Below are positions 1-53,372 of a stretch of 64,000 nt of DNA, in pieces. The number at the start of each line of letters is the position of its first letter. The stretch's first letter is position 1. The notes beneath the pieces are model-generated. The model did not search any database and was not told the DNA's origin. It was given only the letters and a program-made list of their open reading frames with translations. The translations under genes and the position numbers were made by a program. This DNA comes from Leucoraja ocellata (lineage: Eukaryota). The stretch lies in assembly GCA_036785375.1 (NCBI GenBank), contig JAWMAR010000070.1:4216001-4280000 (forward strand), given 5' to 3'.

Positions 1-85
1 CCACAACGAGCTTGGTTCTGAAGCGTCTTTCTGCAATGGCCCAGAAAGGAAAAAAAAAAGCGAGATCAGTACAATAAATACTGGC

Positions 86-275
86 TGTTTAAGAAGGAAC
101 TGCAGATGCTGGAAAATCGAAGGTACACAAAAATGCTGGAGAAACTCAGCGGGTGCAGCAGCATCTATTTGAGCGATGGAAATAGGCAACGTTTCGGCCC
201 GAAACGTTGCCTATTTCCTTCGCTCATAGATGCTGCTGCACCCGCTGAGTTTCTCCAGCATTTTTGTGTACCTTC
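86..275. mobile_element. Short fold-back (palindromic) Penelope-pLTR-derived insertion
   Basis: 119-275 is a near-perfect inverted repeat centred on gtttcggcccgaaac. 86-118 is a one-sided tail. Direct repeat caataaatactggc at 72-85 and 275-288. Confidence 0.8.
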
Positions 276-665
276 AATAAATACTGGCCTTGTGAGCTAC
301 ACGCGTCCGGTGAAAATCAGTAACAAAACAATTAAATCTATTTGAATTCTAGAGCAGAATCGTTGATGTGCCATGTGGGTGAAGCGTACATCTCTACACG
401 GTCAGAGGCAAAGGGCGTGTGGGAAGTGACTCTAAATTTTAAGAGTAAAGGCAGTCACGCCAGTCAGCTGTCGAGCAGAACCGTGGCATGATCTGAGGAT
501 CACAACATGTTTTCCGACGGGATTTTATAGAACTGAAGTCAATGTGAACTCGAGAGAAAATATATCAGGGGCATTAGTTCCACAGAAGCCAATGTGAGCG
601 GGAGAAATTGTATCTGCGACATTAATTCCACAATTTCTGCCTTTCTGAAAATAAGGCTAGCAAAG

Positions 666-1298
666 AACATAGAAACGAAGAAACATAGAAAATGGGTGCA
701 GGAGTAGGCCATTCGCTCCTTCGAGCCTGCACCGCCATTCAATATGATCATGGCTGATCATCCAACTCAGTGTCCTGTACCTGACGTCTCTCCATACACT
801 TTAGCCGCAAGGGCCACATCTAACTCCTTCTTAAATATAGCCAATGAACTGGCCTCAACTACCCTCTGTGGCAGAGAGTTCCAGAGATTCACCACTCTCT
901 GTGTGGAAAATGTGTTTCTCAACTCGGTCCTAAAGGATTTCCCCTTTATCCTTAAACGGTGACCCCCTTGTCCTGGACTTCCACAACATCGGGAACAATC
1001 TTCCTGCATCTAGCCTGTCCAACCGCTAAAGAATTTTGTAAGTTTCTATAAGATCCCCCCTCAATCTTCTAAATACTAGCGAGTACAAGCCGAGTCTATC
1101 CAGTCTTTCTTCATATGAAAGTCCTGACATCCCAGGAATCAGACTGGCGAACCTTCTCTGTACTCCCTCTACGCCAAGAATGTCTTTCCTCAGATTTGGA
1201 GACCAAAACTGTGCGCAATACTCTAGGTGTGGTCTCACCAAGACCCTGTACAAGCGCAGTAGAACCTTCCTGCTCCTATACTCAAATCCTTTTGCCAT
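666..1298 (-). mobile_element. CR1-type LINE 3' fragment
   Basis: ORF 1026-1298 ([32 protein letters not shown]) and [15 protein letters not shown] match the CR1 ORF2 C-terminus. (catagaaa)-type tail at 666-692. Confidence 0.9.
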
Positions 1299-1600
1299 GT
1301 TGCTCTTTCACGAAATAAACTGGTTTTCATTGCCCGGCCTTTGTACGCCAAACTTCCTTTATATTACCAAATCCATTATGGCGTATGAAAGATATGAAAC
1401 AACAATGTATTCTGATTCAAAGGCATATTGGATAACATGAAATTCTGATCAAATAAATGACACGCCGACACCACAATGCACTGAGTTCCATTGCCCCCAT
1501 TACTTGCCTACACGCACGTAACCATCTCTGCCGTGGAAAGAGTACACGGAACCACAACTGACATTGATTATTGGGATATTTAATTCTGGCTTTCACTCAC

Positions 1601-1637
1601 CCGGCAGCGAGGAGATGAGAAGAATGGGAATCCACAT
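1601..1637 (-). CDS. Gene Z leader exon (signal peptide [12 protein letters not shown]) of an MDIR/CD300-like receptor; rest of gene lies left of the window
   Basis: ATG at 1637, 37 nt, phase-1 donor g|gtgagt. Paralogous to leaders at 11466, 34883 and 52640. Confidence 0.8.
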
Positions 1638-2608
1638 TATTTTATCCATAGTGGCAAGGCCAGCACTTGTCTGTCTGTCGCTCAGCTCTGAGCTCTCAGA
1701 TACAACCGCATCTCTCTAATAGCAACGAGGAAGATAGGATCAGGAAGGTTACACAGAAAAGCTGGAGAAACTCAGCGGGTGCAGCAGCATCTATGGAGCG
1801 AAGGAAATAGGCAACGTTTCGGGCCGAAACCCTTCTTCAGACTGATCAGGGGTGGGGGTGGGTGGGGACAAGAAAGGGAAAAGGAGGAGTAGCCGGAAGG
1901 CTGGAGGGTGGGAGGAGACAGCAGGGGAGCTGAGGAAGGGGAGGAGACAGCAAGGACTAACAGAATTGGGAGAAGTCGATGTTCATGCCCCCGGGGTGCA
2001 GACTCCCCAAACGGAATATGAGGTGCTGTTCCTCCAATTTCCGGTGCTGCTCGCTGTGGCCATGGAGGAGACCCAGGACAGAGAGGTCAGAGGCGGAGTG
2101 GGAGGGGGAGTTGAAGTGCTGAGCCACCGGGAGGTCAGCTAGGTTATTGCGGACCGAGCGGAGGTGTTCGGCGAAACGATCGCCCAACCTCCGCTTGGTC
2201 TCACCGATATAGATCTGCTGACATCTAGAGCAGCGGACGCAATAGATGAGGTTGGAAGAGATGCAGGTAAACCTCTGTCGCACCTGGAACGATTGCTTGG
2301 GTCCCTGAAAGGAGTTGAGGGGGGAGGTAAAGGGACAAGTGTTGCATCTGCTGCGGCCGCAAGGGAAAGTGCCCGGGGAGGGGGTGGACCGAGAGGGAAG
2401 GGAAGAATTGACAAGGGAGTTATGGAGGGAGCGGTCTTTGCGGAAGGCAGATATGGGGGGAGATGGGAAGATGTGGCTAGTAGTGGGGTCACGTTGGAGG
2501 TGGCGAAACTGACGGAGGATTATTTTTTGTATGTGATGGCTGGTGGGGTGAAAGGTGAGGACTAGGGGGACTCGGCCCTTGTTGCGAGTGCGGGGATGGG
2601 GAGAGAGA

Positions 2609-4138
2609 AGACCCATTGTCTCCGCCTGTTCGTGCCCCACCGAACTCATTTCCAAATACCTTGACTCCATCCTATCACCCTTGGTTAAATCCCTCCCTAC
2701 CTATGTCCAAGACACCTCAGACACTCTCCGTCGTCTCCGCGCATTCAATTCTCTAGGCCCTCACCCCCTCATCTTCACCATGGACGTCCAATCACTATAC
2801 ACCTCCATCCCCCACCACGATGGTCTCACAGCCCTCCGGTTCTTCCTCGACCAGAGAAGCAACCGATACCCAGCCACTGACACTCTCCTCCGCCTAGCGG
2901 AGCTGGTCCTTACCCTCAATAACTTCGAGTTTGACTCCTCCCACTTCCTCCAAATACAAGGCGTAGCTATGGGCACACGCATGGGCCCCAGCTATGCCTG
3001 CCTATTTGTAGGTTACGTCGAACAATCCTTGTTCAATACATACACGGGCCCCATCCCCAACCTCTACCTCCGCTACATCGACGACTGCTTTGGTGCCACC
3101 TCCTGCACCCGCACACAACTGACTGACTTCATCCACTTCACCACTAATTTCCACCCGGCACTGAAATACACCTGGACCATCTCCGACACTTCCCTACCAT
3201 TCCTTGACCTCACTATCTCCATTGCAGGTGATAGACTTCTAACCGACATACACTACAAACCCACTGACTCCCATGGCTATCTGGACTACACTTCTTCCCA
3301 CCCTGCTTCCTGTAAGGACTCCATCCCCTACTCCCAATTCCTCCGTCTACGTCGCATCTGCTCCACGGATGAGGCGTTCCACACCAGGACATCTGAAATG
3401 TCCTCACTATTCAGGGAACGGGGGTTCCCCTCCTCCACCATAAATGAGGCTCGCACCAGGGTCTCTTCCATACCCCGCAACACTGCTCTCTCTCCCCATC
3501 CCCGCACTCGCAACAAGGGCCGAGTCCCCCTAGTCCTCACCTTTCACCCCACCAGCCATCACATACAAAAAATAATCCTCCGTCAGTTTCGCCACCTCCA
3601 ACGTGACCCCACTACTAGCCACATCTTCCCATCTCCCCCCATATCTGCCTTCCGCAAAGACCGCTCCCTCCATAACTCCCTTGTCAATTCTTCCCTTCCC
3701 TCTCGGTCCACCCCCTCCCCGGGCACTTTCCCTTGCGGCCGCAGCAGATGCAACACTTGTCCCTTTACCTCCCCCCTCAACTCCTTTCAGGGACCCAAGC
3801 AATCGTTCCAGGTGCGACAGAGGTTTACCTGCATCTCTTCCAACCTCATCTATTGCGTCCGCTGCTCTAGATGTCAGCAGATCTATATCGGTGAGACCAA
3901 GCGGAGGTTGGGCGATCGTTTCGCCGAACACCTCCGCTCGGTCCGCAATAACCTAGCTGACCTCCCGGTGGCTCAGCACTTCAACTCCCCCTCCCACTCC
4001 GCCTCTGACCTCTCTGTCCTGGGTCTCCTCCATGGCCACAGCGAGCAGCACCGGAAATTGGAGGAACAGCACCTCATATTCCGTTTGGGGAGTCTGCACC
4101 CCGGGGGCATGAACATCGACTTCTCCCAATTCTGTTAG
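2609..4138 (+). CDS. Penelope-like reverse transcriptase + GIY-YIG endonuclease (N-terminally truncated)
   Basis: RT motifs MDVQSLYTSIP, QIQGVAMGTRMGPSYA and YLRYIDD. Cys linker CGRSRCNTC. Endonuclease motif NLIYCVRC..IYIGET. No internal stops. The first residues of track ORF 2555 come from the inverted arm. Confidence 0.92.
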   Translation, partial: RPIVSACSCPTELISKYLDSILSPLVKSLPTYVQDTSDTLRRLRAFNSLGPHPLIFTMDVQSLYTSIPHHDGLTALRFFLDQRSNRYPATDTLLRLAELVLTLNNFEFDSSHFLQIQGVAMGTRMGPSYACLFVGYVEQSLFNTYTGPIPNLYLRYIDDCFGATSCTRTQLTDFIHFTTNFHPALKYTWTISDTSLPFLDLTISIAGDRLLTDIHYKPTDSHGYLDYTSSHPASCKDSIPYSQFLRLRRICSTDEAFHTRTSEMSSLFRERGFPSSTINEARTRVSSIPRNTALSPHPRTRNKGRVPLVLTFHPTSHHIQKIILRQFRHLQRDPTTSHIFPSPPISAFRKDRSLHNSLVNSSLPSRSTPSPGTFPCGRSRCNTCPFTSPLNSFQGPKQSFQVRQRFTCISSNLIYCVRCSRCQQIYIGETKRRLGDRFAEHLRSVRNNLADLPVAQHFNSPSHSASDLSVLGLLHGHSEQHRKLEEQHLIFRLGSLHPGGMNIDFSQFC

Positions 4139-4254
4139 TCCTTGCTGTCTCCTCCCCTTCCTCAGCTCCCCTGCTGTCTCCTCCCACCCTCCAGCCTTCC
4201 GGCTACTCCTCCTTTTCCCTTTCTTGTCCCCACCAACCCCCACCCCTGATCAGT

Positions 4255-4282
4255 CTGAAGAAGGGTTTCGGCCCGAAACGTT
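4255..4282 (+). ncRNA. Minimal hammerhead-ribozyme-like motif in the Penelope pLTR (inverted copy at 1813-1840)
   Basis: CTGAAGA-A-GGGT(TTCG)GCCC-GAAA-CGTT: both core boxes, stem II with UUCG loop, palindromic minimal stem III. Stem I is only about 2 bp. Confidence 0.6.
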
Positions 4283-4389
4283 GCCTATTTCCTTCGCTCC
4301 ATAGATGCTGCTGCACCCGCTGAGTTTCTCCAGCTTTTCTGTGTAACCTACGATTCTCCAGCATCTGCAGTTCCCTCTTTAACAGATAG

Positions 4390-4471
4390 GATCAGGAAGT
4401 CTGATTGTGAACCACAGCGAGCCAGCAGCAGCGCGACACGTTACAGTGTGAAAGGCTCAGGGTTATATTTA
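4390..4471 (-). promoter_or_regulatory. Gene Z proximal promoter (Ets GGAA, RUNX TGTGGT, TATA-like TAAATATA)
   Basis: caggaagt 4393-4400, accaca 4411-4416, tatattta 4464-4471. The same block lies upstream of all four leader exons. Confidence 0.45.
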
Positions 4472-5771
4472 ACAAATGGTTGGGTCAGATTGTCACAGAG
4501 ACATATAGCTCGGAGACAGGCACTTCTCCCCAACGTGTTAGACCAAGATGCTTATCTAGGTTAGTCAAAATTGCCCACGTTTGACCCATATCTCCCCAAA
4601 CCCTTTCTATCTATGGGCCTGCCCAATTGTAATTCAGAGCTAATACATTAGCAGAGTTGTGTTCATGAAAATATTATTTGCTGACTTTGTACATCTGTTT
4701 GTGATGATTAATTTAATTAATGTTTGCATGATAATATAACATGTCATCTGCTGCGGGCTACCGTTCTGGGTGTGTTACTTTCAGGGGAACGGTGCAGTTT
4801 ATTCGGGTTGTGCACATCAGTGGCAATGTTGTGGTATCGGTGTAACACGATGATGTGTCCGCCACTGATGTTAGTTGAGCGTTGGCGACCCTCAGTAAAG
4901 GGTCTTTTGGTTCGGAGCTATTTCCCGTTTCCTCCCCAAAACGCTGCAGACAGGAACCGACGATGCAGCAAAACAATTTATTTTAATCCTCGTCCTGCTT
5001 TGACCCAAGATTTCTGCAAAACACTGCTCAGCAAACATCGAGCTGCTCGCAAGACACGGTTCAGAGATACGAATCTACACACCCTTGTATCAGCAGCGCG
5101 AGCAAAGTGTCAGCACTGCAGAACCATTCAGTGTAAAGGAACAAATTAGTGTTTGAACATTTGTAATTAAAGTACATTCCAAGCCTGAACTGTCCTCTGA
5201 AAACAACGGTGCCTGTCCCGCTGAGTTGCTCCAGTATTTTGTGTCTATCTGTGGCATCTCAGACTGTTTACCTCTCACTATCAGTGAGGCACTTTGGGAT
5301 GTCCTGCAGTGGGGAAAGGCTGTAATTCAAGTTCATTTCTCCCATTAGACCATTAACAAGCTCCATTTGAACGGGCCAGGCAGCATCAGTGTGACCACAG
5401 AATCTGCAAGTATCTCTGGCTATTCAGCACCCCTCGGATATCCCTGACCTGGGGGTTTGTGAGTTCAAAGCAGCCTCTGGCCTCATTTCCTCGTCCCCCC
5501 GCTTACTGTGTGGAGAATATTTATCTTTGTCAGTGGGACATTTTACCCAAAGCAATCCTTGAGTCTATCCGAACTTTATGGTGGTTACTCCGTTATTGCA
5601 GGTCACCATTTCTTATTTCCAAACAACATCCTTCACAGTTCCTTCATGGGCGGGGTTACAGTCACAAGTCAGACTGAGGAAAGCAACACAATGTGTTTGC
5701 AGTTTCACACCCCGCGCTTTGCAAGCTGCAACTCAACCATTTTGTTCTGCACAAGAATAGACTTTCAACTA

Positions 5772-6097
5772 GTTTAGTTTAGTTCAGTTCAATTTGTAGA
5801 TACAGCGAGGAAACAGGCCCTTCAGCCCACCGAGTCCACACTGGTCAGCGATCCCCGCACATTAACACTACCCCACACACACTGGGGACAATTTACATTT
5901 ATAGCAAGCCAATTAACCTGCATACCTGTACGTCTATGGAGTGTGGGAGGAAACGGAAGATATCGAAGAAAAACCCACGCGGTCACGGTAGAACGTACAA
6001 ACTCCGTACAGACAGCACCCGTAGTCGGGATCGAACCCGGGTGTCCGGTGCTGTAAGCGCTGTAAGGCAGCAACTCCACCGTTGCGCCACCGTGGCC
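5772..6097 (-). mobile_element. tRNA-derived SINE (HE1/V-SINE-like)
   Basis: Minus-strand head cacggtggcgcaacggtgg (A box), gggttcgatcc (B box), (ctaaa)n tail. Multiple relatives in the window. Confidence 0.8.
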
Positions 6098-6369
6098 ATT
6101 ATTTATAATCCTTTAACTCCTTTGTACGGTGGACAAACTGAATAACTCGTTGCAGCATTAAAATATTTATCAATATTACTGTACCCCAAAGACGCGAAAG
6201 TGGGGTGATATAGAACCAGTGTGAAAGGGTTGATTGCTGGTTGACGTGGACTCGGTGGGCCAAATGGTCTGTATCCATGCTGTATCTCTCAATCACTTAA
6301 TCAAAAAATCAAACATGCTGGATTATCTCAACGGGACAGGCAACATCAAAGATCTTAGAGCAGAGCTTT

Positions 6370-6870
6370 GGGCAGCATCACTGGATGAAAGGAATGGGTG
6401 ACGTTTCGGTTCGAGACCCTTCTTCAGACTGAAGTCAGGGGAGAGGGAGATACTTGGATAAGGAATTGTGAGGTGTGGAAATGTGGCTAAGGGTATGCAG
6501 ATCAAAGGAAACTGTAGGATGGATCATTGTTAGTTGGGAGAAGGCAACAGCAAAGCGATTAGAGATAAAATGTTGTCGGAGACTGTCAGACCATCGGAGC
6601 ACTGGGAAGGAAGGAGGGGTGGATTGAGACGGAAGGCAAGGGTTACTTGTTGAAGTCAATGTTCACACCGCTGGGGTGTAAGCTGCCCAAACGAAATAGG
6701 AGGTGCTGTTCCTCCAAGTTGCGCTGGGACTCCCTCTGACAATGGAGGATGCCCAGGACAGAAATGTCAGTGTGGGAATGGGAGGGGGAGTTAAAGTGTT
6801 TAGCGACCGGGATATCAGGTTGGTTTAGACGGACTGAGCGGAGGTGTTGAGCGAAACGATCTCCGAGAGG
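6370..6870 (-). mobile_element. Degenerate Penelope 3' fragment (GIY-YIG end + pLTR with hammerhead-like core at 6400-6427)
   Basis: ORF 6643-6894 LGDRFAQHLRSVR..VAKHFNSPSHS..LEEQHLLFRLGSLHP. Minus strand carries ctgaagaagggtctcgaaccgaaacgtc. Confidence 0.85.
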
Positions 6871-7616
6871 CGCCAACAATCGCAGGCTCGGCAATAGTTT
6901 CGCTGAACACTGCAGCTCAGTCTCCTAAACCTACCCGATCTATCCACAGATGCCGCCTGTCCCACTGAGTTACCCCAGCAATTTATGTCTAACTTCAGTT
7001 TAAACCAGCATCTGCAGTTCCTTCCTACCTAAAAATGTGTTGCATTTAGGAAATTAAATCTGCAGATGTTGGATTTGCTTAGCGCGTCAGTCAGCATCTG
7101 TGGAGAGAAACATAAGGCTAATCGTCAAAACAATGTCGTTGCATAATTTTGTTCAGATAGGATAGCTTGGTGTGAAAGATTAATTGGCTGCTTATCCTAA
7201 ACGCCTTTAACGTTTGGCAACAGGAGGATTATCCAGCAATCTGCTCTTCATCACTAAAGTTCCAGTCTAAACAAAATAAATTTAGACAAACCATTCATCG
7301 ACGAACAATTTATTATGAAGCATTCTGATACATTATCACTCATTAATCAGTGAAAAACATTTTTTCCATGAAGATGAATGCATAAAATATAGTTTAACAG
7401 AGTATAAGATGCTGGAGCAACGGAAAGCATGCAAAGGTTAAAACAATAGTTCGAAGCTGACGAAAGAAACCTTGGAAAAGGTGGCAACAATTAAGATCAT
7501 TGCGGGAAATGAGTTTTGGAAACACATATGGTTTGTAAAGTTTGGAACATTGCTTTGAAGTCACTTTCATGAAATCATTGGTTGAATTGCAAGATACGTA
7601 TATTCTATCCAATTGA

Positions 7617-8013
7617 AACCTCTTATAGAAACTTACAAAATTCTTAAGGGGTTGGACAGGCTAGATGCAGGAAGATTGCTCCCGATGTTGGGGAAGTCCA
7701 GGACAAGGGGTCACAGCTTAAGGATAAGGGGGAAATCCTTTAAAACCGAGATGAGAAGAACATTTTTCACACAGAGAGTGGTGAATCTCTGGAACTCTCT
7801 GCCACAGAGGGTAGTCGAGGCCAGTTCATTGGCTATATTTAAGAGGGAGTTAGATGTGGCCCTTGTGGCTAAGGGGATCAGAGGGTATGGAGGGAAGGCA
7901 GGTACGGGATACTGAGTTGGATGATCAGCCATGATCATATTGAATGGCGGTGCAGGCTCGAAGGGCTGAATGGCCTACTCCTGCGCCTAAATTCTATGTT
8001 TCTATGTTTCTAT
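7617..8013 (+). mobile_element. CR1-type LINE 3' fragment
   Basis: [36 protein letters not shown], followed by a (ttctatgt)n tail. Confidence 0.9.
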
Positions 8014-8747
8014 GATATCAGTTGACAAAGCAGGATGATGAATAAATATTTCATCGCGGTGCAGAATTCCCTCACTGTTGGTTCAAGCTAGGTGTCTTCA
8101 TTCGTGGGTCGAGTGGCGAGGTTCAGACTCATCGCGTCTCTGCAAAAGACAATGTGAAGTCATCAGACTCATTGACAGTGGTAACAACGCTTTATTTAAC
8201 CCGACCACTCCCAACACATTGCTGGCTGGAAGATGGACTCTAAAGAACCCACACCGGGCACAGAAATCCACCCTGCACACGTACAACCTGACAAAACCTC
8301 GTGATATCATCTACACAGAGATTTGGTTTAACTTCAGTTATGAAAACGGGTACGGTTTTTATTTCTATCAATGGACAGGACATTTGAAAGCATTAATGGA
8401 AACCGTTTGGAAACATTCGGCGAAGAGAAGTGATTGCTTTGGTCAGAGGGTGGCGAATCTATGGATGTCATTACCACAGGAGGCTGTGGAGGCCAAGTCA
8501 ATTCACACCGGAGATGCTGCCTGTTCCGCTGAGCTACTTCGGCATTTTTGTATCTGTCCAAATCAATTGGTATTTTTAAGGCGAAGATTTTCATATTCTT
8601 GATAAATGAGGATGTCAAGAGTCATCGGGAGATGGCAGGAGAATGGGATCGAGAGGGAAGCCGTGATTGGGGGCGGATTAGATATGATGGGCTGAATGGC
8701 CTAATTCTGCTTCTATACTTCATGAGCACGATGACAATGACGCCTAC

Positions 8748-8838
8748 CTTCGAGCCTCTTGTGAGCACCGCGGTTGAGATACTCCAGATCACAAGCAGGA
8801 GAAAGACCATCCAGCGCCCCACTTTCCATGAGATGTAA
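8748..8838 (-). CDS. Gene A transmembrane exon with charged residues ([30 protein letters not shown])
   Basis: Acceptor ccctttgcccag, donor aag|gtaggc, 91 nt. Paralogs at 41109 and 58300. Confidence 0.8.
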
Positions 8839-9995
8839 CTGGGCAAAGGGCAAGAGATACAGAATCACTGGGAGAAAACGAGACGGTTTATCTTCGAAAC
8901 ATTTATCTGTTATTTGCTTCATAATCTTGGTGAAGTGGAGCGGGGCGAAGCAGCAGAGTCAATGGAGATCAGTTTGGAGAAAGAACGGGGTTTGGACTTG
9001 TGGGGGGGGGGGGGGGGGGGAGGGGTAGTTATGATCACCAATTACTGACGTCATTGCTGGAGCATGGCTACAAGGGAATGAGAGATTACGCGGTTAAATG
9101 GATTCGGAGAAGAGAGAGAAATAAGTTATGAGGTGGAGCAGTGAATACAGTGAATACAGAGTAGATGCTGGTGAAACAGCGGGAGAGGCAGCATTTCTGG
9201 AGAGAAGGAATGCGTGGTTTCGGATACAGACCCTTCTTCAGACTGGGAGTCACGGGAGAGAGAAACTGGGGATGTGGAAAGAAACAAAGAACAGTGTAAT
9301 ATCCTGGAAGAAAGAAATGCAGCTGCAAGGAAGATTATAATAAAACGCATATCAGAATCAGAATCAGAATCATACTTTATTCGCCAAGTATGTTCTGCAA
9401 CATACGATAGGAACAATAAACCAGATCAATTCTAATGGTGCAAGGGAGATGGGGCAACAAATATGGAAACAGATGAGGCCAATTAATAAAATAAATTAAA
9501 CATGATAATGCTTAATCTCACATCCTCGATATTACTTGGATTAACGCGGCAGGTCTGTGGATATAGGAATCGTGTTCGAAAATTCGGTGAAAGGTTCGCT
9601 CCTAACGGCGTGGCTTTTGTTAACGTTCTTATTATATCCTAGGCCCCTCTCCCACCCACCCGCTCTGCACAGATCCATTCGCTCTCCTGTACACACGGGG
9701 CAATTTACAACTGGCACATCTATGGGAGCTGGGAGGAAACTGGAGCACTTATATGAAATCAACACGATTAAAGGCAAAACATGCAGACCACACACAGACA
9801 GCACCTAATGGACCAGGGTCGTGGCGTTGTGAGGCTGTGATTCTTATCGGCTGTGCCACTGTGCATTCAGATCAATACTCTCACGGCATTCAATGCCAGT
9901 GAAAGGAAGGCACACGTTTCCCCCAATTAAAGAATCCCAATCAAAACACCAGCAATTTGTTCATAGTAACTTTCATTGGAAACAGAGTGGTTTAC

Positions 9996-10044
9996 CTTGC
10001 AGAGTAATTGGATGTTATCAAATTTTCACAAGAACATTCATGAC
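9996..10044 (-). CDS. Gene A stalk exon (GHECSCENLITSNYSA)
   Basis: 49 nt, acceptor ttgttccaccag, donor ag|gtaaac. Paralogs at 25662 and 60986. Confidence 0.75.
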
Positions 10045-10169
10045 CTGGTGGAACAAGGAAATAAATGTCAGTTTCACTGCTTTTCACTCCTCCCTGTGAA
10101 CGCGTGGGTTTTCTCCATTCTAAATTCCAGAGTATACAAGCGCAGCCGCTCCATTCAATCAACATATGA

Positions 10170-10575
10170 CAGTCCCCCGCCTTCCCCGGAATTGTCCTTG
10201 TGAACCTACGCTGCACTCCCATCAATAGCAAGAAGGTCCTTCCTCAAATTTGGAGTTCAAAACTGCACACAATAATCTAGGTGTGGTCTCACTAGGGCCA
10301 TGTACAACTTCAGAAGGACCTCTTTGCTCCTGTACTCAACTCCTCTTATTATTAAGGTCAACATGCCACTAGCTGTCTTCACTGCCTGCAGTACCTGCAT
10401 GCTTACTTTCAGTGAGTGATGAACAAGGACACCCCAGATCTCTTTGTACTTCCCCTTTTCCCAACCTGACACCATTCAGATAATAATCTGCCTTCCTGCT
10501 TTTGCTACTAAACTGGCCAACCTCACATTTATCCACATTAAACTTCATCCACCATGCATCTAGCCACTCACTCAA
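10170..10575 (-). mobile_element. CR1 ORF2 fragment at the site of the gene A Ig-exon loss
   Basis: Frameshifted ORFs MKFNVDKCEV and LYMALVRPHLDYCVQF. Confidence 0.8.
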
Positions 10576-11465
10576 CCACTCACCCACTCACCACTCGCTC
10601 ACTCACCACCCACCTCCAGGTCCCTTACCGGAGAGCGTTACGAGCATGAAAACGCACACCGCCAGATTCGGGGACAATTTCTTCACAGCTGTTATCAGGC
10701 ATCTGAATTATCCTACCACATCCAGAGATCTGTCCTGAACTCCCATCTACCTCTTTGTTGACCTTCGGACTACCCTTGATCGGACTTTGCTGGCCTTACC
10801 TTACACTAAACGCTATTTCCCATTAATGTACCTATGCACTGTAAGGGGATCGACTGTAATCATGTATCTGGCAGGTTAGCATGCAACAAAAAGCTTTTCT
10901 CTGTAACTCTGTACACGTGACAATAAACTGAATTTGAATTTCAGCATGACTGGGCCGCGGATCCGAGAGCGGATGGAGAGAGAGTTGGCGGTGGGTGGAT
11001 AGAGTGAGGGCAGTGGTTCAGTCTCAGACTCCGGGGAATTGTTGGGTTTACGACAGAGTTGAGTGGGACAAATGCAGGGAGTACTTGAACTGACACAATG
11101 AGACCACAATCCTGACTTCCACCTCAGTTGTAAACACATGTTGTTAGCGTAGAGTTAACTTCCTGGTGATGTTAGAACCTCTGTTCTTCTGTCCAGGTGT
11201 CTTGGAGTATCTGCTCCAAATTAATTTGGTATGTTATGCCTATAAACCTCCATCATGATGCAATTAGATCAAGTGTTAACAGTGGTTAAACTCCGAACAT
11301 TGTCTAGATATTCAAATGTGATTTCAGATCCATCACCACAATGCACTGAGTTCCATCTCGCTCATTACATGTCTACACACACTTAACCATCTCTGCTGTA
11401 GAAAGGGTGCACGGGACCCCAACTAACATTGATCATTGGAATATCAGGATCTGGCTTTCACTCAC

Positions 11466-11502
11466 CCGGCAGCGAGGCGATGAGAAGAATGGGAATCCAC
11501 AT
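11466..11502 (-). CDS. Gene A leader exon ([12 protein letters not shown])
   Basis: 37 nt, ATG at 11502, donor g|gtgagt. Confidence 0.8.
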
Positions 11503-14119
11503 TGTTTTATCCACAGTGACAAAACCAACAATTGTATGTCTGTCACTCAGCTCTGATACAATCTCAAATAGCAATTACAAGAAGGGAACAGGACGTCAGA
11601 TCCTGAACCACAGCGAGCCAGCAGCAGCTCGACACTTTACAGTGTGAAAGGCTCTGGGTTATATTTAACAAATGGTTGGGTCAGATGATCACGGAAACAG
11701 GCTCTTCTCCCCAACGAGTGAGACCAATATGCTCATCTAAGTTAATCAAATTTGTCCACGCTCGACCCATATCTCCCCAAACCTTCCCTATCCATGGACC
11801 TGTCCAAGTGCCCGTTACATGTAGTTATTGCAGCTGCTTCAACCACTTCGTCAAGTGTGATGTATCCATAAGGATGGAGCGGCGGCCATCTCTGTACTCG
11901 GAGTCTGTTAGCACTGAACAATGGGGGAAATAATGATAGACAAAAAATGCAGGAGCAACTCTGCGGGCCAGGCAGCTCCTCTGGAGAAAGTGGATAGGTG
12001 ACGTTTCGGGTCGGGACCTCTTGTGTAAACAATTAAACTATGGTTAAAGTATGACATTTAGAAGAGTAGAAACGTCTAACATGTGTACACTTCCGGATCA
12101 TTCCCTCTTGATGATTCTTTAAGTGGACCGGCAGATCAAAAATATAATCATTGGAACTTTTTTTCGCATATTGCTGTTGACAAGGAGCAAAACAGGAAGT
12201 TGGCATTAGGATGTAGGGGATTTTCACCTGAAATCAGCTGAAGTTAATTGGAGTTTGACCCTCTCCTCTCCGCTTCAACTCTTCAATTCAAACTTTGAAA
12301 CACTATTGTTATGATATTCATGTTTTGAAAATAACAATTAATGGTGTAGTGGACTGTGAAGAAGTTTGTCTAGAATTACCACAGGATGGAGATCAGCTGG
12401 GAAAGCGGGATGTGGAATGTAACTGACATGTGTAATGTAACTCAAACAAGGGCGAAGTGATACACTTGGTGAAGTTAAAGCAAGGATGAATATGCACGGT
12501 GAATTGAATTGTTAACTTATATACGTTGCCATTCAGAGCTACTAAATTATCAGAGTTGCGGTCATGTACATTCCATTGGCTGACTTGCATCTGCTTGCAA
12601 CGATTTAATTCTGTAGGCAACTAGTTGTTTTATAATATAACCTAATATCTGCTGCGGGCTATCGTTCTGGGTGTGTTACTTTCAGGGGAACAGTGCAGTT
12701 TATTCGGGTTGTGTACATCTGTGGCAATGTTGTGCATCACGTGGTATCGGTGTAACACACTGATGTGTCCGCCACTGATGTTAGCTGAGCGTTGACGGCC
12801 CTTAGTAAAGGATCTTGTGTTCAGAGCTATTTCCTGTTTACTTGCCCAACTAAAACACTGCAGAGAGGAACCGACGATGCAGCAAAACAATTTAATTCTG
12901 TCTTCATTCGCCATTGACCCATGACTTCTGCAAACACTGCTCAGCAATCAGTGTTACACCGAGCTGCTCGCAAGATGCGGTTCAGATATACGAATCTACA
13001 CGAATATTCGAAGCTTGTTTCAGCAGCGCGAGCAAAGTGTCAGCACTGCAGAACAATTCAGTGTAAAGAAAGAAATGACTGTTTGAACAAATTAGATTGA
13101 AGCACATTCCAAGTCAGCACCTGCCATTAAAAACAACAATGGCATCGAACCGAAATGTCACCCATTCTTTCCTTCCAGTGATGCTGCCTATCCCGCTGAA
13201 TTGCTCCAGTATTTTGTGTCTATCTGTGGCATCTCAGGCCGTTTATCTCTCGCTATCTTTATGGAATTTTAGGATGTCCTGTAGTGGGGAAACGTTGAAC
13301 GAGCCAGGCAGCAAATATCTCTGGCTATTCAGCACCCCTCGGATATCCCTGACCTGGGGGTTTCTGATTTCAAAGCAACCCCTGGTCTCATTTCCTCGTC
13401 TCCCCGCTTACTGCTCTTTCAAGCTGCAACTCAACCAGTTTGTTCTGCACAAGAATGGACTTTCCACTAGTTTAGTTTAGGATACGGCGCGGAAACAGGC
13501 CCTTCGGCCCACCGAGACCACACGATCCCGTTGCGCCAACATTGTGTAAACTAGTTTAGTTTAGTTTAGTGGGCCGAAGTGCCTATTTCCACGCTGCAAC
13601 CATAAACTAATCTGAAGGGAGCAATTTCACTTGCGAGGAGTATTGCTTGGGATGAAACGTTAGGTATGGGGAGGGGTTGGATAGGGATTTTATAAAATTC
13701 CATGCAGAACAGGTGAGGAAAAGGGAACCCATTACAGGTGTGCAGAACTTTGAGCAGCAAAGATAGGGTATTTTTGGAACGTTTTCCACGGCAGATATGT
13801 GTAAAAGTGGAGAACATTTGGTTAAGTTAAGGAGCAGGATGTTTCAAGGGGAACAAGAAATATGTTTAAACCTAGAAGATGGAGGTAACTGAATTGCCAC
13901 AATGGACGAGGTGCTGGTAAATGAGATTAGTGTCGATGGTACTGAATGGTCAACATTAACACAGTGGAACAAATCTGATATCGGCGTCCAGGAGTTAACG
14001 GTGGCCACATTTACTGCTAATATTCATTCCCTTATCGTATCTGAGTGCGCATCCTGCGGAGATGATGGTGGGAAAGTAAAAGTGCTTGGACTGATAATAC
14101 TGCAGGAGGAGAGTACTGC

Positions 14120-14670
14120 ATTCAGCCCTTCGAGCCTGCACCGCCATTCAATATGATCATGGCTGATCATCCAACTCAGTATCCTGTACCTGCCTTCTCT
14201 CCATACCCCCTGATCCCTTTAGCCACAAGGGCCACATTTAACTCCCTCTTAAATATAGCCAATGAACTGGCCTCAACTACCCTCCGTGGCAGAGAATTCC
14301 AGAGATTCACAACTCTCTGTGTGAAAAATGTTTTTCTCATCTCGGTCCTAAAAGACTTTCCCCTTATCCTTAAACTGTGACTCCTTGTTCTGGACTTCCC
14401 CAAAATCGGAGACAATCTTCCTGCATCTAGCCTGTCCAACGCCTTAAGAAGGTTGTTAGTTTCTATAAGATACGAGTGGGTTTAAACTAAATCGCGTGCT
14501 TTCAAGAGAGAGTTAGATAGAACTCTTAAAGATAGCGGAGTCAGTGGATATGGGGAAAAGACAGGAACGGGGTACTGAATGTGAATGATTAGCCATGATC
14601 ACGGTGAATGGCGGTGCGGGCTCGAAGGGCCGAAGGGCCTACTCCTGCCCCTATTGTCTATTGTCTATTT
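14120..14670. mobile_element. Two oppositely oriented CR1 3' fragments (14120-14470 minus; ~14480-14670 plus)
   Basis: ORF 14176-14439 is the CR1 C-terminus. The second fragment ends in a (ctattgt)n tail. Confidence 0.7.
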
Positions 14671-14790
14671 TCTTCCACATCTTTTGTTTTATAAAGCTGC
14701 GACCAGAACTGTGCACCAGACTCCCATATGTTACCTAACAAATGTTTTGTGCGGGTGCCAAGATATCAAGTCACTGATTGAGAAACCTAC

Positions 14791-15108
14791 CTTCAGATAC
14801 TTGGAGATGTACTTGAAATGTTGGTTCGCCAGGTGTAGTAATTCCACATCTGTACCATCCTGTATCTCCAGAGTGAAGACCCTCCACAGTCACAGTAAAT
14901 ATCCCTCGTGCCGGGTTATCTGTGATTGACACTCTTCCGCTCTGTCCATGTTTCCCATTTGTTTCACCTACATGTGTACACTGGCGACTTGTCTCACGGC
15001 ACCAGTATTTTGTGTGTGAGCGGTACACTGCTGCATAGTGACAATCGATTGTGATCGCTCTTCCCACAACCCCTCTTACTTCGCTCTCAGCCCACAGTGC
15101 ACCTGAAA
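14791..15108 (-). CDS. Orphan CD300/pIgR-type Ig V exon (V2 class)
   Basis: Open 318-nt phase 1-1 exon with ITIDCHY, KYWC-x6-C and DTGWYRCG. Intact AG/GT. No own leader or C2 exon nearby. Confidence 0.85.
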
Positions 15109-15939
15109 CTGAAGGAAACATATTTCATAAATTGAAGAGCAAAATTAACCTTTCACAAACATATACATTATAGTATACATCAATGTGTACAGGGGAATCC
15201 GCCCAATCATTTTCGTAACGTGTTGAATTCAACCTAGATTGCGATGAGAGACAGATACTGTACACCGTCCCTCACCATCTGCGTCCAAAGCGCTTCCCAG
15301 CCAATGTGGGTGTGAATGGTGAAAAATGATGCATTGAAGACGGAGCCTGTTGCAATTGGAAGGCGCTGTCTAGGGAGTCTTGGTGAGTTGGTGCAGTGCA
15401 TCGTGCAGATGGTGCAAACTGCTGCTGCTCTGCATCAGCGGGGGAGGTTGACGATGGAGTGTCTATCAAGCGCGATTCTGGTTCATGACAGACGAGCACA
15501 AGTGTTCAGCGAAACTGTGGCCTAGGCTTTGCTTGGCCTCGCTGATGTAAACCATTCACACTCGCTTCTGGACTTCCCCTCTGAGCGTCTCCACACCTAC
15601 TGGGAGCTACATTTCAAAACTCACTTTGACAAAAGTAACGGGTTTACTTTATGGAGTGACGGGGAGGAAGATTCACTTTAATTTTGAGAGATTATTGGGG
15701 TTCCTCCAGAGATTCACACAAATTAATACGTTTTTAATCCTGCCATGATCATGAAACCCATGCGTACACAAGCAGACCGTACAAACTCCATACAGACAGC
15801 ACCCAAGGTCAGGATCGAACCCGGGATTCGGATGCTGTGAGGCAGCGGCTCTACCTGTTGTGCCAATGTGTGATTGTCTCAGATATCTTTCAACTTTCCT
15901 TGCAGGCAAGAACAAGGATTGAACCCTGGTTAGCAGCAT

Positions 15940-17870
15940 GGGGGCTGCATGCTTGCAAACCGGCAAGCTAAGTGCAGAGTTAAATCTATGGTACTTCCTC
16001 CCCGATGGTTTTGCAAGCCGACTGTGAACACCCTTCCTTGTGTGTTGGTGGTAAGGGCTCCCCGGTCAGATACTTTTTGCGTTGCGTTTTGTTGCACAAC
16101 CACAGAGCTCCACAAGGCAGCTGTGCTCTGGACAAAACTGTTATCCATCTACTTCTGCAGTGTGCAATTGGCAAGAAAACGTTATAGATACAACATGGAA
16201 ACAGGCTCTTCGGCTCACCGAATCTGCGCCAACCAGTGTTCACCCCGGATACAATTTACTGTGCAATTTAACCTACAAACCTGTCTGTCTTTGGTGTGTG
16301 GGAGGAAACCGGAACACCGCGAGAAAACCCATGCGGACACAATGAGAACGTACAAACTCCATATAGACAGCAGCCGAGATCAGCATTGAACCTGGGTCTC
16401 GGGCGCTGTTAGACAGCAACACTACTGCTGTGCCACTTTGTTCCACCTACTGACTTGCCAGGGCAATGTGTTCCCCCTGAGCTAACATTCTTATATCTTC
16501 ATATTTTCCAGCATCTGCAGTTCCTTCTTAAACATTCTTATACTCTGCATGTTCTTGCTGAATTCTTGAGAACCAGAGGACATAGTTTGAGAACCAGAGG
16601 ACATATGTTTAAGGTGAGGGGAAAAGATTTAATAGGAACCTGAGGGAAGCTGAACAGGATAGGTTTACAGTGATATGAGCCAAATGTCTTTAGTCAGAGG
16701 GTGGTGAGTTTGTGGAATTTTTTTCAACAACCAACTGTGGAAGCTTATTCGATCGATATTTTTTAGGCAGAGATTGACAGATTCCTGATTAGTGTGGGAG
16801 TCAGGGGTTATGGGGAGAAGGCAGGTGAATGGAGGTGAATGTAGATCAGCCACGATTGAATGGCGGAGTAGAGTTGATGCGCCGAAAGGCCAAATTCTGC
16901 ACTTAGAACTTATGAACCTATGAACATTGTGTTTAAGAAGGAACTGCAGATGCTGGAAAATCGGAGGTACTCAAAAATGCTGGAGAAACTCAACGGGTGC
17001 GGCAGTATCTATGGAGCAAAGAAAATAGGCAACTTTTCGGGCCAAAACCCTTCTTCAGATCAGTCTGAAGAAGGGTTTATTCAGATCAGTCTGAAGAAGG
17101 GTTTAGGCCCGAAACGTTGCCTATTTCCTTCGCTCCATAGATGCTGCTGCACCCGCTGAGCTTCTCCAGCATTTTTGTGAGGTTATGAACATTGTTGGTT
17201 TGTGGGTTTCTGCTGCAGTCATATTCTGAGAAAAGTAACACCAGCCCGAAGTAAGTTCCTGACCTGAAATGTCGCTTGCCCATCTCGTTTCAGAGATGAT
17301 GTTTGACCCACTATAGTGGGGGTTTTTTTGTTTTGCTCAACTGCTCATATTAACAGGAAGCACGTTGATCACAGCAAGATGCAGCTCACACATTTGACTC
17401 AGACCACAATATTTATTTCCATCACACGTTGGCCTTTGATGTGTTTGTACATTGACTGGAAATGTGTTAAAAACAAATAAATGTGTATTGTAGGGTGCAC
17501 AAATTAATGTACAAATATGTCAGGCCCCATTCAGGCCTTCATAACTACACTATGCATTAAACTCATAGCTTATCCTTCATATCAATATCCAGTACTATTT
17601 ATATTTCCATAAATCCCGTAATATCTAAGAAACAATTGTTCCCAGGCTAGATTGCATTGGAGTCATAGAATGCAGGAACAGGCCCTTCGGCCAAACTTAT
17701 CCCTCCTCACTGCGTCTGGACAATTGAGCCAAGGAAAACCTCATCCCTTCACCTGCACTCTCCTGCTCAGTAAGAACTTTGCATATTTTGAACAAAGTAC
17801 CGCTATAGTTGAGAAGAGGACCTGTAGCAATGCTGCTAAGACCAGAATTTCCAAATCGAACTTTCTTCTC
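15940..17870 (+). repeat. Old local duplication unit, paralogous to ~19385-21125
   Basis: Shared collinear blocks, e.g. aaaccggcaagc..ctatggtacttcctc, the SINE, and aggaagcacgttg..gcagctcacacatttgac. Also 18520-18640 matches 21135-21255. Confidence 0.8.
16931..17183. mobile_element. Short fold-back Penelope-pLTR-derived insertion with hammerhead-like cores
   Basis: Inverted arms around tcagatcagtctgaagaagggttt (centre partly duplicated). Same one-sided tail as 86-118. 12-bp TSD tatgaacattgt at 16919-16930 and 17184-17195. Absent from the paralogous site near 20470. Confidence 0.8.
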
Positions 17871-18640
17871 CTACAGAAATTGTAATTTTTGGAAGGGTTT
17901 CTGTGGTCATGACAGTTGAACCTTCTTGGTTTAGGATCTCACCCAGAAATTTGCAGTTCAGGCAGTGATGTACTCTACCAGTTGGCACTGAGGTGCTCGT
18001 AGGTCATGTGCTCATGTACTGGGGAGGGACGTTGTAGACGGGAAATTTTCACGTGGACTCCGGGCTTGTTTTCAGAAAAAAATGTTTTATTACGAATTGG
18101 CCAACTTTGGTTACACATGTCCTGGGGAAGATGCCCTCAGATACAAGGCATTCAGTGCCTTTTACACAACCACATCTACATTACCTTCCTCTCCTAACTT
18201 TACCTTGCATTCTCAGTGAGTAGAAAAGATAAAGGAATGCATGTATATTACTCTGTTGTGCTGCTGCAAGTACATACTGCATGACAATAAAACACACTTG
18301 ACTCACTTTTTGCCTTCTAATAGGCTATAAAATCTGTGAATATTTCTGCAGTTCCACGCTACATTACTCCCCTCCATCTCCACTTGGCTGTGCAGTATCT
18401 AAGGATGGGCTCACTTAGGGTCATTTTATTTGCAACTGGTCACTGAGGCAGGTAAAATCCAGTCTAGACCAAGTTTTAGTGAGACCCCTTACCCAGGCTT
18501 GAGGATCATTTTACATCTTGGGCTTATCTGCCTTAGCCCATTATCCACTTGAACCCATGTTCTTGCTTGAACCATTGCCCCTTTACGGACTTGAACCCAC
18601 AATATTTTGGCCCAGAGACAATGGGGTGTGGTGTGCTTAG

Positions 18641-19384
18641 ACAGCCACTTGCAATTGATTATAATGGGATTGTTTAATTATTATCTTAATTTACACAGAC
18701 CCAACTCTTCTTCGTCTGAATGTTCAATTAACCTATCCTTTGTCTATTATAACGATGTTTCTCTTACCTGTTACTCTTGTGGATCTCGGCAGGGAACCAG
18801 AATATCCTCAGTCGAGGGGTTTCCTGGGAACTCTATCGGGAGTTCAGACTTAATGGATCCGATAGTGCACTTTTCACTCCCCTCGAGGTACCGGCCAGAC
18901 AGCAGCCGCTTACTCAGTCGAAGGAGATGGTCCCAGTGAGATCCTGCCGACTATGGCAATGTTAAATTTCTATCCGCGCTATCAAACAACAAACCCCATT
19001 GGTCACTTTAAGAATGTAACAATTCCTCTTTATTATGCATGCGGGAATGGGAGAGCGTCCACGAGTCTGGTTACATTACAGTTGCCCCTCGCGGTTCCAC
19101 TCAATTATTCTTTGCACAGGCAGCATATTTATACATGAGTAGCACGGGTCTAGCTAATCACACAATCAACACATTTCTGCACCGGTTCTGATTGTTTAGA
19201 ACAGATTAGTTTTTCTCTGCAGCACAACTTGGTATCGGGACTCTTCACTTTTTAGTCACAATACCTTTTGCAGTTCTGCAAAACCATTCATTAGTTAGCA
19301 ATTCTAAGTAAGTAAAGCAGGCTCACCACGCGCAACAAGCAATCTGTTATGTACACATTGACTCTTAAACCCCCATCCTCATCA
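18641..19384 (-). mobile_element. Truncated LTR retroelement/ERV: 5' LTR (18960-19384), tRNA-Ser primer-binding site (18941-18958), leader with splice donor
   Basis: On minus: TG..CA ends, TATAAATA at 19126-19133, AATAAA at 19029-19034. atcctgccgactatggca matches the tRNA-Ser 3' end ATCCTGCCGACTACGCCA at 16/18. cag|gtaag at 18768/18767. Confidence 0.75.
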
Positions 19385-21620
19385 GCACATGTTTACAAAC
19401 CGGCAAGCAAACTACTGACTTAAGTCTATGGTACTTCCTCCCTGATGGTTTTGCAAGCCGACTGTGAACATCCTTCCTTGGGTGTTATAAACAAAAGACA
19501 ATATGTGTAGGAGTAGACCTTTCGCCCTTCGAGCCAGCACCGCCATACAATGCAATCATGGCTGATCATCCCCAATCAGTACCATGTTCCTACCTTCTCC
19601 CCATATCCCCTAACTCTGCTATCTTTAAGAGCCCCATCAAGTTGGTGTGAAGGGCTGCCCAGTCAGATCCTATTAGCGTTGCGTGTGTTGCACAACCACG
19701 GAGTTCCACAAGGCAGATGTGCCCTGGACAAGACCATTATCCATCTCCTTCTGCTGTGCGCAATTGACAAGAACATTTTATGGATACAGCATGGAAACGG
19801 GCTCTTCGGCCCACCTTGACCGCGCCAACCAGTGTTCACCGGTATACACTTTACTGTGCAAATTAACCTACAAACCTGTATGTCTTTGGAGCGTGGGAGG
19901 AAATTGGAGCACCCAGTGAAAACTCTTGCTGACACAGGGGGAATGTACAAACTCCATACAGACAGCACCCGAGGTCAGCATCAAACTTGGGTCTACGGCA
20001 CTGTAAGACAGCAACTCTACCGCTGTGCCACTGTGTTCTAGATGAAACCCACTGACCTGCCAGAGCGAGGTGCTCTCCCTGAGCTAACATTTTTATACTC
20101 TACATGTTCTTGCTGAATGTTTGAGGACCAGAGGACATAGTTTAAGAACCAGAGGACATGGGTTTAAGGTGAGGGGGGCAGATTTAATAGCAACCTGAGG
20201 GAACCTGGACAGGATAGATTAACAGTGATATGGGCCAAATTCCTTTCGTCTGGTGAATCTGTGGAATTTATTTTAACAGACGGTTGTGGAAGCCAATCCA
20301 ATGGATATATCTGAGACAGAGATTGACAATTCCTGATCAGTGTGGATGTCAGGGGCTAGAAGGCAGGAGAATGGGGATGGGAGGGAAAGATAGATCAGCC
20401 ATGATTGAATTGTGGAGTAGACTTGAATGGCCGAAAGTTCTAATTCTGCACTAAGAACTTACTAACCTATGCATATTGTATGTTTGTGGGTTTCAGCGAC
20501 AGTCATATTCTGAGAAAAGTAACACCTATCTGAAGTAGGGTCCTGACCTGAAATGACATCTGCCCATTTCCATTCAGAGGTGTTGCTTGACCCACTGAAG
20601 TGTTTTTTTTTTTGTTTTGCTCAACTGCTCATATTAACAGGAAGCACGTTGGCCACAGCAAGATGCAGCTCACACATTTGACGCAGACCACAACATTTCT
20701 TTCCATCGCACGATGGCCTTTGATGTGTTTGTACATTGACTGGAAATGTGTTCAAAACAACTTAATATGTATTGTTGGGTGATCAACTTAATGAACAAAT
20801 ATGTCAGGCCCCACCACTACACGATGCATTGAAATCATAGCTTATCTTTTATCATGTCAATATCCAGTACTAGTTATATTTCCGTGAATCCTTTAATATT
20901 TAAGAAACAATTGTTCCCAGGCTAGATTGTATTCGAGTCATTGATCCATACAACGAAGAAACAGGCCCTTTGGCCCAAATTACCCCTCCACAGTGCGAGC
21001 CATGGAAAACCTAATCCCTTCACCTACACTCTCCTGCTCTGTAAGAACTTTGTATATTTCGAACAGAGTACCTCCTCTAGAGTTGAGAAGACGTGCTGTA
21101 GCATTTCCAATTGAACTTACTTCTGCTGCATCTTGGGCATCTCTGCCTTAGCCCACTATCCACTTGAATCCATTTCTTGCTTGATCCATTGCCCTTTTAC
21201 GGACTTGAACCCACAATATTTTGGCCCAGAGACAATGGGGTGTGATGTGTTTAGGCTGACCCTTCCAAGGAATGATGATGGGAGGGTTGGGGAATTTGTG
21301 GGTGGAGGGAATGAGGGTGGGTATGACACGAATGGGAACCAATGCCATTTTATCATTTGTATGCATGATCTAGGCTCACTCATTATACTAGCGGATGAAA
21401 GAGATCGTACAAGTGAGTGTAATTCGTAAGGTCATTAGTGATAGGAGCAGACAATTTGACCCATCAAGGCTACTCCACCATTGAATCGTCGCTAATTTAC
21501 CTCTCCCTCCTAACACCACTCCCCTGCCTTCTCCCCATCACCCCTTACAACTGATGAATTGAACGAAACCGCTCAGAAGGTGCTTGACAAACTAAAGCTA
21601 TAAAAAGATGCCGGTTTATC

Positions 21621-21819
21621 CAAAGACGAACCCAAAATGCTGGAGTAACTCAGATGGTCAAGAAATATCTCTGGTGAAAATTGATGGGTAACATATTGGG
21701 TCAGGACCTTTCTACAGACCATCTGAACATGGGTCCCAACTTCAAACATCACCTGTCTATTTTCTCCAGAGATGCTGCCTGACCTGTTGAGTTACTCCAG
21801 CATTTTGTGTTCATCTTTG
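21621..21819. repeat. Older degenerate fold-back Penelope-derived palindrome
   Basis: caaagacgaacccaaaatgctggagtaactc at the left end is inverse to gagttactccagcattttgtgttcatctttg at the right end. Confidence 0.65.
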
Positions 21820-52676: not shown

Positions 52677-53372
52677 TGTTTCATCCATAGTGACAAGGCC
52701 AGCACTTGTCTGTCTGTCGCTCAGCTCTGAGCTCTCAGATACACCCGCATCTCTCAAATAGCAATGAGGAAGAAGGGAACAGGAAGTCACACCGTGAACC
52801 ACAGCGAGCCAGCAGCAGCTCGACACGATATAGTGTGAAATGCTCAGGGTTATATTTAGCAAATGGTTGGGTCAGTTGTTCACAGAGTCATCCAGCAGGA
52901 AACAAGCCCTTTTCCCCAAGCGTTAAACCAATATGCTCATCCAAGTTGGTCAAATTTGCCCCAAACCTTCCCTATCAATGACCCTGTCCAAGGGCCCATT
53001 ACATATTGTTATTGCAGCTGCTTCAACCACTTCGTCAGGTATGATGTATCCGCAAGGATGGAGCGGCGGTTGTCTCTGTACTCAGAGTCTGTTAACACTG
53101 AACAGTGGTGGAAATAATGACAGACAAAAAAATGCAGGAGCAACTCTGCGGGCCCGGCAGCACCTCTGGAGAGAATGGATAGGTGACGTTTCGGGTCCGG
53201 ACCCTTCATGTAAACAATGATACGTTACATAAAATATGATATTTAGAAGAGTAGAAACGTCTAAGATGTGTACAATTTCTGATCATTCCCTTTTGATGAT
53301 TTTGTAAGTGGACCGGCAGATCAAAAATATAATCATTGGAACTTTTGTTGTGGCATATCGCTGTTGACAAGG

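Follow-up and report, generated by a model that had tools for sequence, protein, structure and literature searches.

Inverted one-tailed Penelope-like insertions in a Leucoraja ocellata contig and their possible origin by coupled twin priming

Penelope-like elements (PLEs) typically feature an inverted, 5'-truncated copy and a tail of 30-40 nucleotides (nt) at one end (PMC8557442, PMC8969392), and the mechanism forming this architecture is called undefined (PMC8557442). In D. virilis, the inverted repeats of Penelope copies vary in size (PMC2377424, PMC3681739), while Penelope in Adineta vaga has inverted pseudo-long terminal repeats (pLTRs), a 31-bp tail, target-site duplications (TSDs) of 8-10 bp and a verified empty site, with junction palindromes read by the authors as antisense self-priming (PMC3846280). 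For the Poseidon protein PAc, nicking and extension of both strands were shown in vitro, with two internal reverse transcriptase (RT) start sites between which the tail lies; PAc is predicted to form a dimer, and the later integration steps are left unvalidated in that study (PMC11167929). Inverted tailed copies have been in print, and known, for decades. Here, we analyse insertions of this kind in 64,000 nt of Leucoraja ocellata DNA (assembly GCA_036785375.1, contig JAWMAR010000070.1, positions 4,216,001 to 4,280,000, forward strand), hereafter the window, including copies as short as 190 bp.

On balance, we favour a reading in which these inserts are 5'-truncated copies of a PLE with a Neptune-type linker, each probably built afresh by nicking of both target strands, priming of two complementary DNAs (cDNAs) and their head-to-head joining. 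The direct observations comprise the PLE identity of the inserts, their TSDs and empty sites, a division of the 3' ends into two classes, and junctions that differ at all six inverted loci; the short palindromes are likely dead-on-arrival products and not a separate mobile family. We propose more tentatively that the inverted one-tailed insertions arise by coupled twin priming, with two fixed RT start sites on one RNA, rather than by self-priming or fold-back. If so, the one-base polarity of the centres, together with solo-tail and tailless-arm by-products, records the mechanism in many short copies, and counting these could settle it. The window holds all the product classes that are predicted (tail only, tailless only, and both head-to-head), and a junction feature separates fold-back of one cDNA from joining of two, which makes the open question of mechanism cheaply testable by counting.

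Three young inserts, termed A, C and B in order of position, carry the features given below.

72-85, plus strand: left TSD of A, an exact 14-bp repeat with its right copy at 275-288
86-274: insert A (base 275 is common to the insert end and the TSD)
86-197, minus strand: tailed arm of A, the 33-nt tail being 86-118 on the left side
191-274, plus strand: tailless inverted arm of A
1732-1747, plus strand: left TSD of C, an exact 16-bp repeat with its right copy at 4384-4399; paralogous empty site at about 52730-52840
1748-4383: insert C, about 2.6 kb
1748-2608, minus strand: tailless inverted arm of C, a copy of 3487-4347 with 1 mismatch
2609-4138, plus strand: 5'-truncated open frame of C, 509 codons with no stop, with RT (YIDD), CX4CxxC linker and GIY-YIG endonuclease with an internal CxxC
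4255-4282, plus strand: minimal hammerhead ribozyme motif of C, also in the C inverted arm, in B and in the single arms H1 and G
4350-4383, plus strand: one-sided tail of C, on the right
16919-16930, plus strand: left TSD of B, an exact 12-bp repeat with its right copy at 17184-17195; empty site at about 20420-20540
16931-17183: insert B
16931-17059, minus strand: tailed arm of B, tail on the left
17054-17105, plus strand: perfect 26-nt tandem duplication in B, spanning the inversion junction
17058-17183, plus strand: tailless inverted arm of B, the arm ending at 17179 and followed by 4 nt of filler

A preliminary description of this DNA had presented 86-275, 16931-17183 and 1748-4383 as insertions with an inverted copy, a one-sided tail and TSDs of 14, 12 and 16 bp, and these claims were borne out: the TSDs are exact, an exact repeat above 7 nt occurred at 0 of 394 random boundary pairs, and the tails measure 33-40 nt. 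Once the insert and one copy of the TSD are taken out, B and C align without gaps to their paralogous empty sites (an alignment of the flanks only in the case of B); a paralogue of A was sought in the window and none was found. The arms are identical at 68/69 positions in A and 81/90 in B, and in C they differ by 1 mismatch per 863 nt (1746-2608 and 3487-4349). The inverted copies had been said to stop at about the same point, and they do so closely, yet they fall short of the tailed end by 33 (A), 35-37 (C) and 40 nt (B), not at one point. Similarly, the shared fold-back architecture that was proposed stands with regard to the inversion and the tail, but the centres of the three inserts differ and C, with a unique loop of 878 nt between its arms, is not a symmetric hairpin.

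The frame in C begins at residue 296 of an 803-residue relative, and C is therefore 5'-truncated. Its RVT_1 match (E = 1.8e-6, 28.2 bits) lies just under the cut-off of 29.6; a Pfam GIY-YIG match to the C protein was not found, while several relatives carry PF01541. A GIY-CxxC-YIG motif is present at residues 413-428, with histidines further downstream in the translation (CCHH motif), and the CX4CxxC linker lies at residues 376-384; the CX2-5CxxC linker motif is found in 110 of 120 stored relatives as well. The closest named relatives are proteins of whale shark, stingray, bamboo shark, zebra shark and devil ray (63-70% identity), which points to a cartilaginous-fish host, the top match overall being an unnamed protein at 53% identity, and among solved structures there was no sequence match to the PLE protein. 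The frame with RT and GIY-YIG runs contiguously into the C arm sequence. Because the 2.6-kb copy combines a Neptune-type linker with RT and GIY-YIG in one frame, the inserts are identified, on sequence grounds, as endonuclease-containing (EN+) PLEs, which supports the Penelope origin and the inverted pLTR with a one-sided tail suggested earlier (PMC8557442, PMC3846280, PMC2377424).

A CX2-5CxxC motif between RT and endonuclease marks Neptune and Nematis, and Penelope and Poseidon are described without it (PMC8557442); by these motif-based definitions, the element is of Neptune/Nematis type and not Penelope/Poseidon. It shares with such EN+ PLEs the order of RT and C-terminal GIY-YIG with CxxC between GIY and YIG, the linker motif, 5' truncation, the inverted 5'-truncated copy, the 30-40 nt tail at one end and the hammerhead motif (PMC8557442). 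Of other features in their description (PMC8557442), no direct tandem pLTR, full-length frame or microsatellite target was seen in the window, and neither a full-length nor a clear tandem copy (direct partial-tandem pLTR) was found there. With Penelope of D. virilis and Adineta it has in common the copy-dependent size of the inverted repeat, a tail of 31-37 nt, a TSD with empty site and junction palindromes (PMC2377424, PMC3681739, PMC3846280), whereas TSDs are 8-10 bp in Adineta and 12-16 bp here (PMC3846280), and the inverted copies here, unlike those described from the two species, reach down to 190 bp and can lack coding sequence.

A profile trained on 14 window copies gave 48 rows at E up to 2. 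Eleven rows with E above 1e-3 were dropped (best shuffled E 0.01, 5 shuffles), and the remaining 37 were collapsed by hand via paralogy into 17 independent loci, comprising 6 inverted pairs (A-F) and 11 single arms. The 3' ends of the 22 scoreable arms (out of 23; the end of the inverted arm of F is lost) are bimodal, with 7 at profile positions 163-165, representing the full tail, 12 at 120-135, which is 30-45 profile positions before the full tail, and 3 elsewhere. Loci beyond the young inserts include the following.

6310-7031: E, an older inverted insertion with its junction at about 6865-6877 in the endonuclease-coding region and the tail on the right; paralogue at about 37110-37523
16496-16530, plus strand: solo tail with a 12-bp TSD (16484-16495 and 16531-16542) and an empty site in a paralogue
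21606-21819: D, an inverted pair from an older subfamily; part of a tail, left side
29990-30083 (94 nt; 29975-30098 with TSDs), plus strand: I, a single tailless arm with a 15-bp TSD with 1 mismatch; paralogue at about 47910-48018
38396-38470, plus strand: L, a short single tailless arm inside another repeat, with a TSD-like repeat of about 11 bp and an empty site at about 20270-20360; paralogues near 8493 and 55599
59771-60764: F, an older inverted insertion whose minus arm corresponds to C positions 3150-3301 and whose tailed plus arm starts from near C 3660; paralogue at about 42563-43539

The inverted loci E and F, the solo tail and several single arms were absent from the preliminary description, which had included 21621-21819 as an older example; D is indeed an inverted pair, but of a diverged subfamily (70/96 positions identical between its arms, 66/95 between D and C), with a partial tail and no TSD above chance. 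No TSD was found for E, and none for F, which has lost its left end. The firm boundaries among the single-arm cases are those of I, whose TSD scores 12 against a chance maximum of 8 in 147 controls, and of the solo tail, whose 5' end lies within the stretch in which tailless arms terminate. The TSD of L is borderline, with a score of 8 that was equalled by 1 of the 147 controls. I and L, as tailless arms with a TSD or an empty site, demonstrate that a tailless end can be an insertion end without a fold-back partner, and the solo tail is the converse. As a separate observation, an inverted copy of 5 nt with a spacer of 2 nt lies before the 5' end of I (29990-30002; copy 47925-47936). The match is perfect at 47925 alone and is possibly a micro snap-back, possibly chance.

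The junctions of the six inverted loci, spread over two subfamilies, are all different, a small sample from this window only. In A, the junction lies in hammerhead helix II, formed via a 7-nt inverted motif or overlap at 191-197; base 198, at the centre, agrees in polarity with the tailless arm, and this arm reaches 1-8 nt further 5' than the tailed arm. In B, the arms meet with a 2-nt overlap a short way upstream of the hammerhead core, and the tailless arm extends 4-6 nt further 5'; the 26-nt duplication spanning this junction arose later than the joining. The inverted, tailless arm of F lies about 500 nt upstream of the tailed arm. The tailed arm is the longer one in C, where the junction is in RT and the difference is 878 nt, and in E, where it is in the endonuclease region and amounts to about 15-20 nt. 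D has its junction near the B position and is ambiguous. Since a tailless arm copied from a tailed cDNA cannot hold sequence absent there, A, B and F are contrary to simple fold-back, while C and E fit it and D is uninformative.

According to the reading we favour, the element enzyme would cut both target strands with staggered GIY-YIG nicks 8-16 bp apart, and both 3'-OH ends would prime, often aided by 1-4 nt of pairing; the two primings would probably involve a single dimeric particle and, as template, either one RNA or transcripts of one source copy. One cDNA would begin at the distal start site and carry the tail, while the other would begin 33-40 nt upstream; each would stop independently, often near the hammerhead, and the two cDNA 3' ends would anneal via self-complementary motifs or microhomology, with host repair filling in. 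Priming at one end only would leave one arm by itself, tailless or tailed, or a solo tail. Folding calculations are compatible with such annealing, as identical cDNA ends can duplex at -18.6 kcal/mol for an A-type and -9.9 kcal/mol for a B-type centre, and a B-type end alone formed no hairpin. In LINE-1 twin priming, the second nick primes its own cDNA, resulting in an inversion within the TSD with the inverted piece upstream of the first cDNA. The second-nick-primed cDNA and the inversion inside the TSD are alike in the PLE inserts, which differ in that their two arms, begun at two fixed start sites, usually span one and the same 3' region.

By analogy, the behaviour of PAc, a protein from Anolis carolinensis, may extend to the Neptune-type element. 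Both systems feature two 3'-end classes set apart by the tail and an uncleaved hammerhead in the inserts, whereas PAc belongs to another clade without the linker motif and is reported to prime without target homology (PMC11167929), in contrast to the 1-4 nt of overlap with the target at 6 of the 8 primed ends with a firm TSD here (hand-scored; binomial p = 0.004 against 25% chance). These overlaps are minimum values. The TSDs had been regarded as a direct readout of GIY-YIG staggered cutting, which goes too far: because of the overlaps, the stagger is bracketed, at 13-14 bp for A, 11-12 for B, 13-16 for C and 8-12 for the solo tail, and five sites are insufficient to derive a nick motif.

The strongest competitor, fold-back, was also raised in the preliminary description. 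Here, a tail-primed cDNA snaps back on itself, copying proceeds to within about 35 nt of the target junction, and the product is joined to the second nick. We regard this as possible but rather unlikely, and keep it at that level because of its best support, which at the same time weighs against two separate primings: none of the 5 scoreable inverted loci has tail sequence on both sides or on neither (a hand calculation puts chance at 0.5^5 or less, about 0.03), and the nearly identical arms of C share private variants absent from A and B, which fit one template molecule and hence also fold-back. The longer tailed arms of C and E are likewise as it predicts, and a DNA hairpin of -4.0 kcal/mol can form at the A centre. 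Against it stand the polarity of the A centre base, the tailless arms that out-reach the tailed ones in A, B and F, and the tailless single arms that stop in the same zone without a partner, so that the claim is disfavoured overall while C and E remain compatible with it. Further points also count against joining of two cDNAs. The polarity of A depends on one base; B, whose centre is demonstrably rearranged, could be a fold-back at an 8-nt natural palindrome followed by a tip deletion; and F is old, has neither left end nor TSD, and may owe its shape to a later deletion. Among the older single arms, none of G, H1, H2, J, K and M has a TSD that exceeds chance, and these arms could be remnants; approximate TSD searches for D, E, F and these six gave chance-level scores throughout. 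Moreover, PAc showed no start-site difference between strands, and the in vitro data come from Poseidon, not Neptune, in a study whose available text does not address inverted copies (PMC11167929).

If two cDNAs are joined, the one-sided tails in 5/5 loci imply that the two primings are not independent draws, and together with the common private variants of the C arms they require that the primings must be coupled, most simply on one RNA. An excess of mutations in the B tailed arm (about 7 against 2), considered as a sign of two RNAs, was not significant (p = 0.18).

Miniature inverted-repeat transposable elements (MITEs) are short and palindromic, with terminal inverted repeats (TIRs) at both ends and a fixed TSD length. 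The short inserts share the size and the palindromic form, but have no TIRs at both ends, no fixed TSD length or junction, and a retrotransposon origin; short PLE palindromes can nevertheless be mis-annotated as MITEs. Of the two explanations offered previously, a recurrent product of one integration mechanism is supported, whereas a self-propagating, non-autonomous MITE-like hairpin retroelement amplified from one or a few short masters is not, and we consider it improbable. Besides the short size, the B and D centres within a few nt of each other and the 5' ends at profile 29-47 in 7 of the 17 loci speak for such a family, and non-autonomous PLEs are described in Chlamys (PMC8557442). No junction is common to any two of the six inverted loci of the window, B and D belong to subfamilies about 30% apart, and the tailless ends differ (33, 35-37 and 40 nt). 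Single arms begin at the same motif too, and the clustering of 5' ends is therefore sequence-guided.

Self-priming on an antisense transcript that begins with the tail, as proposed in PMC3846280, appears improbable to a similar degree. It would account for the palindromic junction motifs of A, B and D and for the intron-like sequence kept in longer copies, but by our reasoning the centre polarity expected from it is that of fold-back, and A, B and F go against this polarity; moreover, the in vitro template of PAc is sense RNA (PMC11167929). A TIR DNA transposon or an assembly fold-back artefact, for which the long near-perfect inverted arms of C could be cited, has next to no probability and is refuted within the window by arms contiguous with the RT frame, TSDs that vary between 12, 14 and 16 bp, asymmetric one-tailed ends, and the presence of both TSD copies and empty paralogous sites; the fixed short TSDs that TIR transposons were expected to show are thus not what the palindromes have.

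The hammerhead motif was detected with a descriptor built from PMC4209133 and the core consensus, which gave 5 hits in the window against 0 in 100 shuffles; the minimal hammerhead is described in that source, according to which the D. virilis intron ends at helix I (PMC4209133). Helix positions are paired at 84.8% in 20 copies, compared with 12-42% in slid controls. No measure of covariation in these copies exceeded shuffles, the folding stability of the 3' 145 nt of C is no higher than that of shuffles (z = -0.02), an Rfam scan of the window gave no match at gathering score, and Rfam hammerhead models gave none on 4150-4420 at E up to 10. Because the pairing and covariation measures do not exceed shuffles, the predicted ribozyme is taken as a motif match only. 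A hammerhead-cleaved template as origin of the 5' ends was ruled out, as the arms of A, B and C run across the predicted cleavage site and continue upstream of it. A run rich in pyrimidines (73-87% of 30 nt) and ending in CAG immediately adjoins the upstream side of the hammerhead core in 6 of the 7 loci whose native upstream sequence is preserved (4221-4254, with equivalents at 6428, 9242, 22770, 23562, 31837, 43459, 49630, 58808 and 60634). It resembles a 3' splice site, and the 5' ends of B, D, I and a further locus, N, lie within about 5 nt of it.

The literature search, to which most subscription papers were beyond reach, retrieved no report of chondrichthyan PLE palindromes, of this family or of PLE twin priming. 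Overall, the DNA of the window is of vertebrate type and rich in repeats; it contains large segmental duplications and two N gaps. Tandemly duplicated immunoglobulin (Ig) V-set and Ig_2 exons at 26753-31656, 43918-49551 and 61411-64000 form a pIgR/CD300-like gene cluster, with pIgR and CD300/CMRF35 as best solved relatives of the one V-set exon searched. Duplications of this cluster supply empty sites, and the PLE palindromes add inverted repeats to what is an immune-receptor cluster.

Some minor features were also recorded. Next to E, at 7060-7110 and 37559-37604, a weak minus-strand match resembles the 3' end of a more distant PLE family. An imperfect palindrome of about 146 bp (about 80%) at 28445-28590 and 46279-46424 has no match to PLE arms, was therefore excluded as a PLE locus, and yielded no TSD; a 16-nt tail-like stretch lies about 25 nt to its left (E 0.01-0.05, not above shuffles). 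RT fragments of the long interspersed nuclear element (LINE) type are located at 56116-57636 (RVT_1 E = 1.6e-32), 53368-54980 and 39180-40719, two of them oppositely oriented, 3 kb apart and 77% complementary. Finally, an abundant repeat of about 240-630 nt with 87-92% identity occurs at 667-1299, 7621-8014, 14111-14471 and other sites, likely representing LINE 3' ends or short interspersed nuclear elements.

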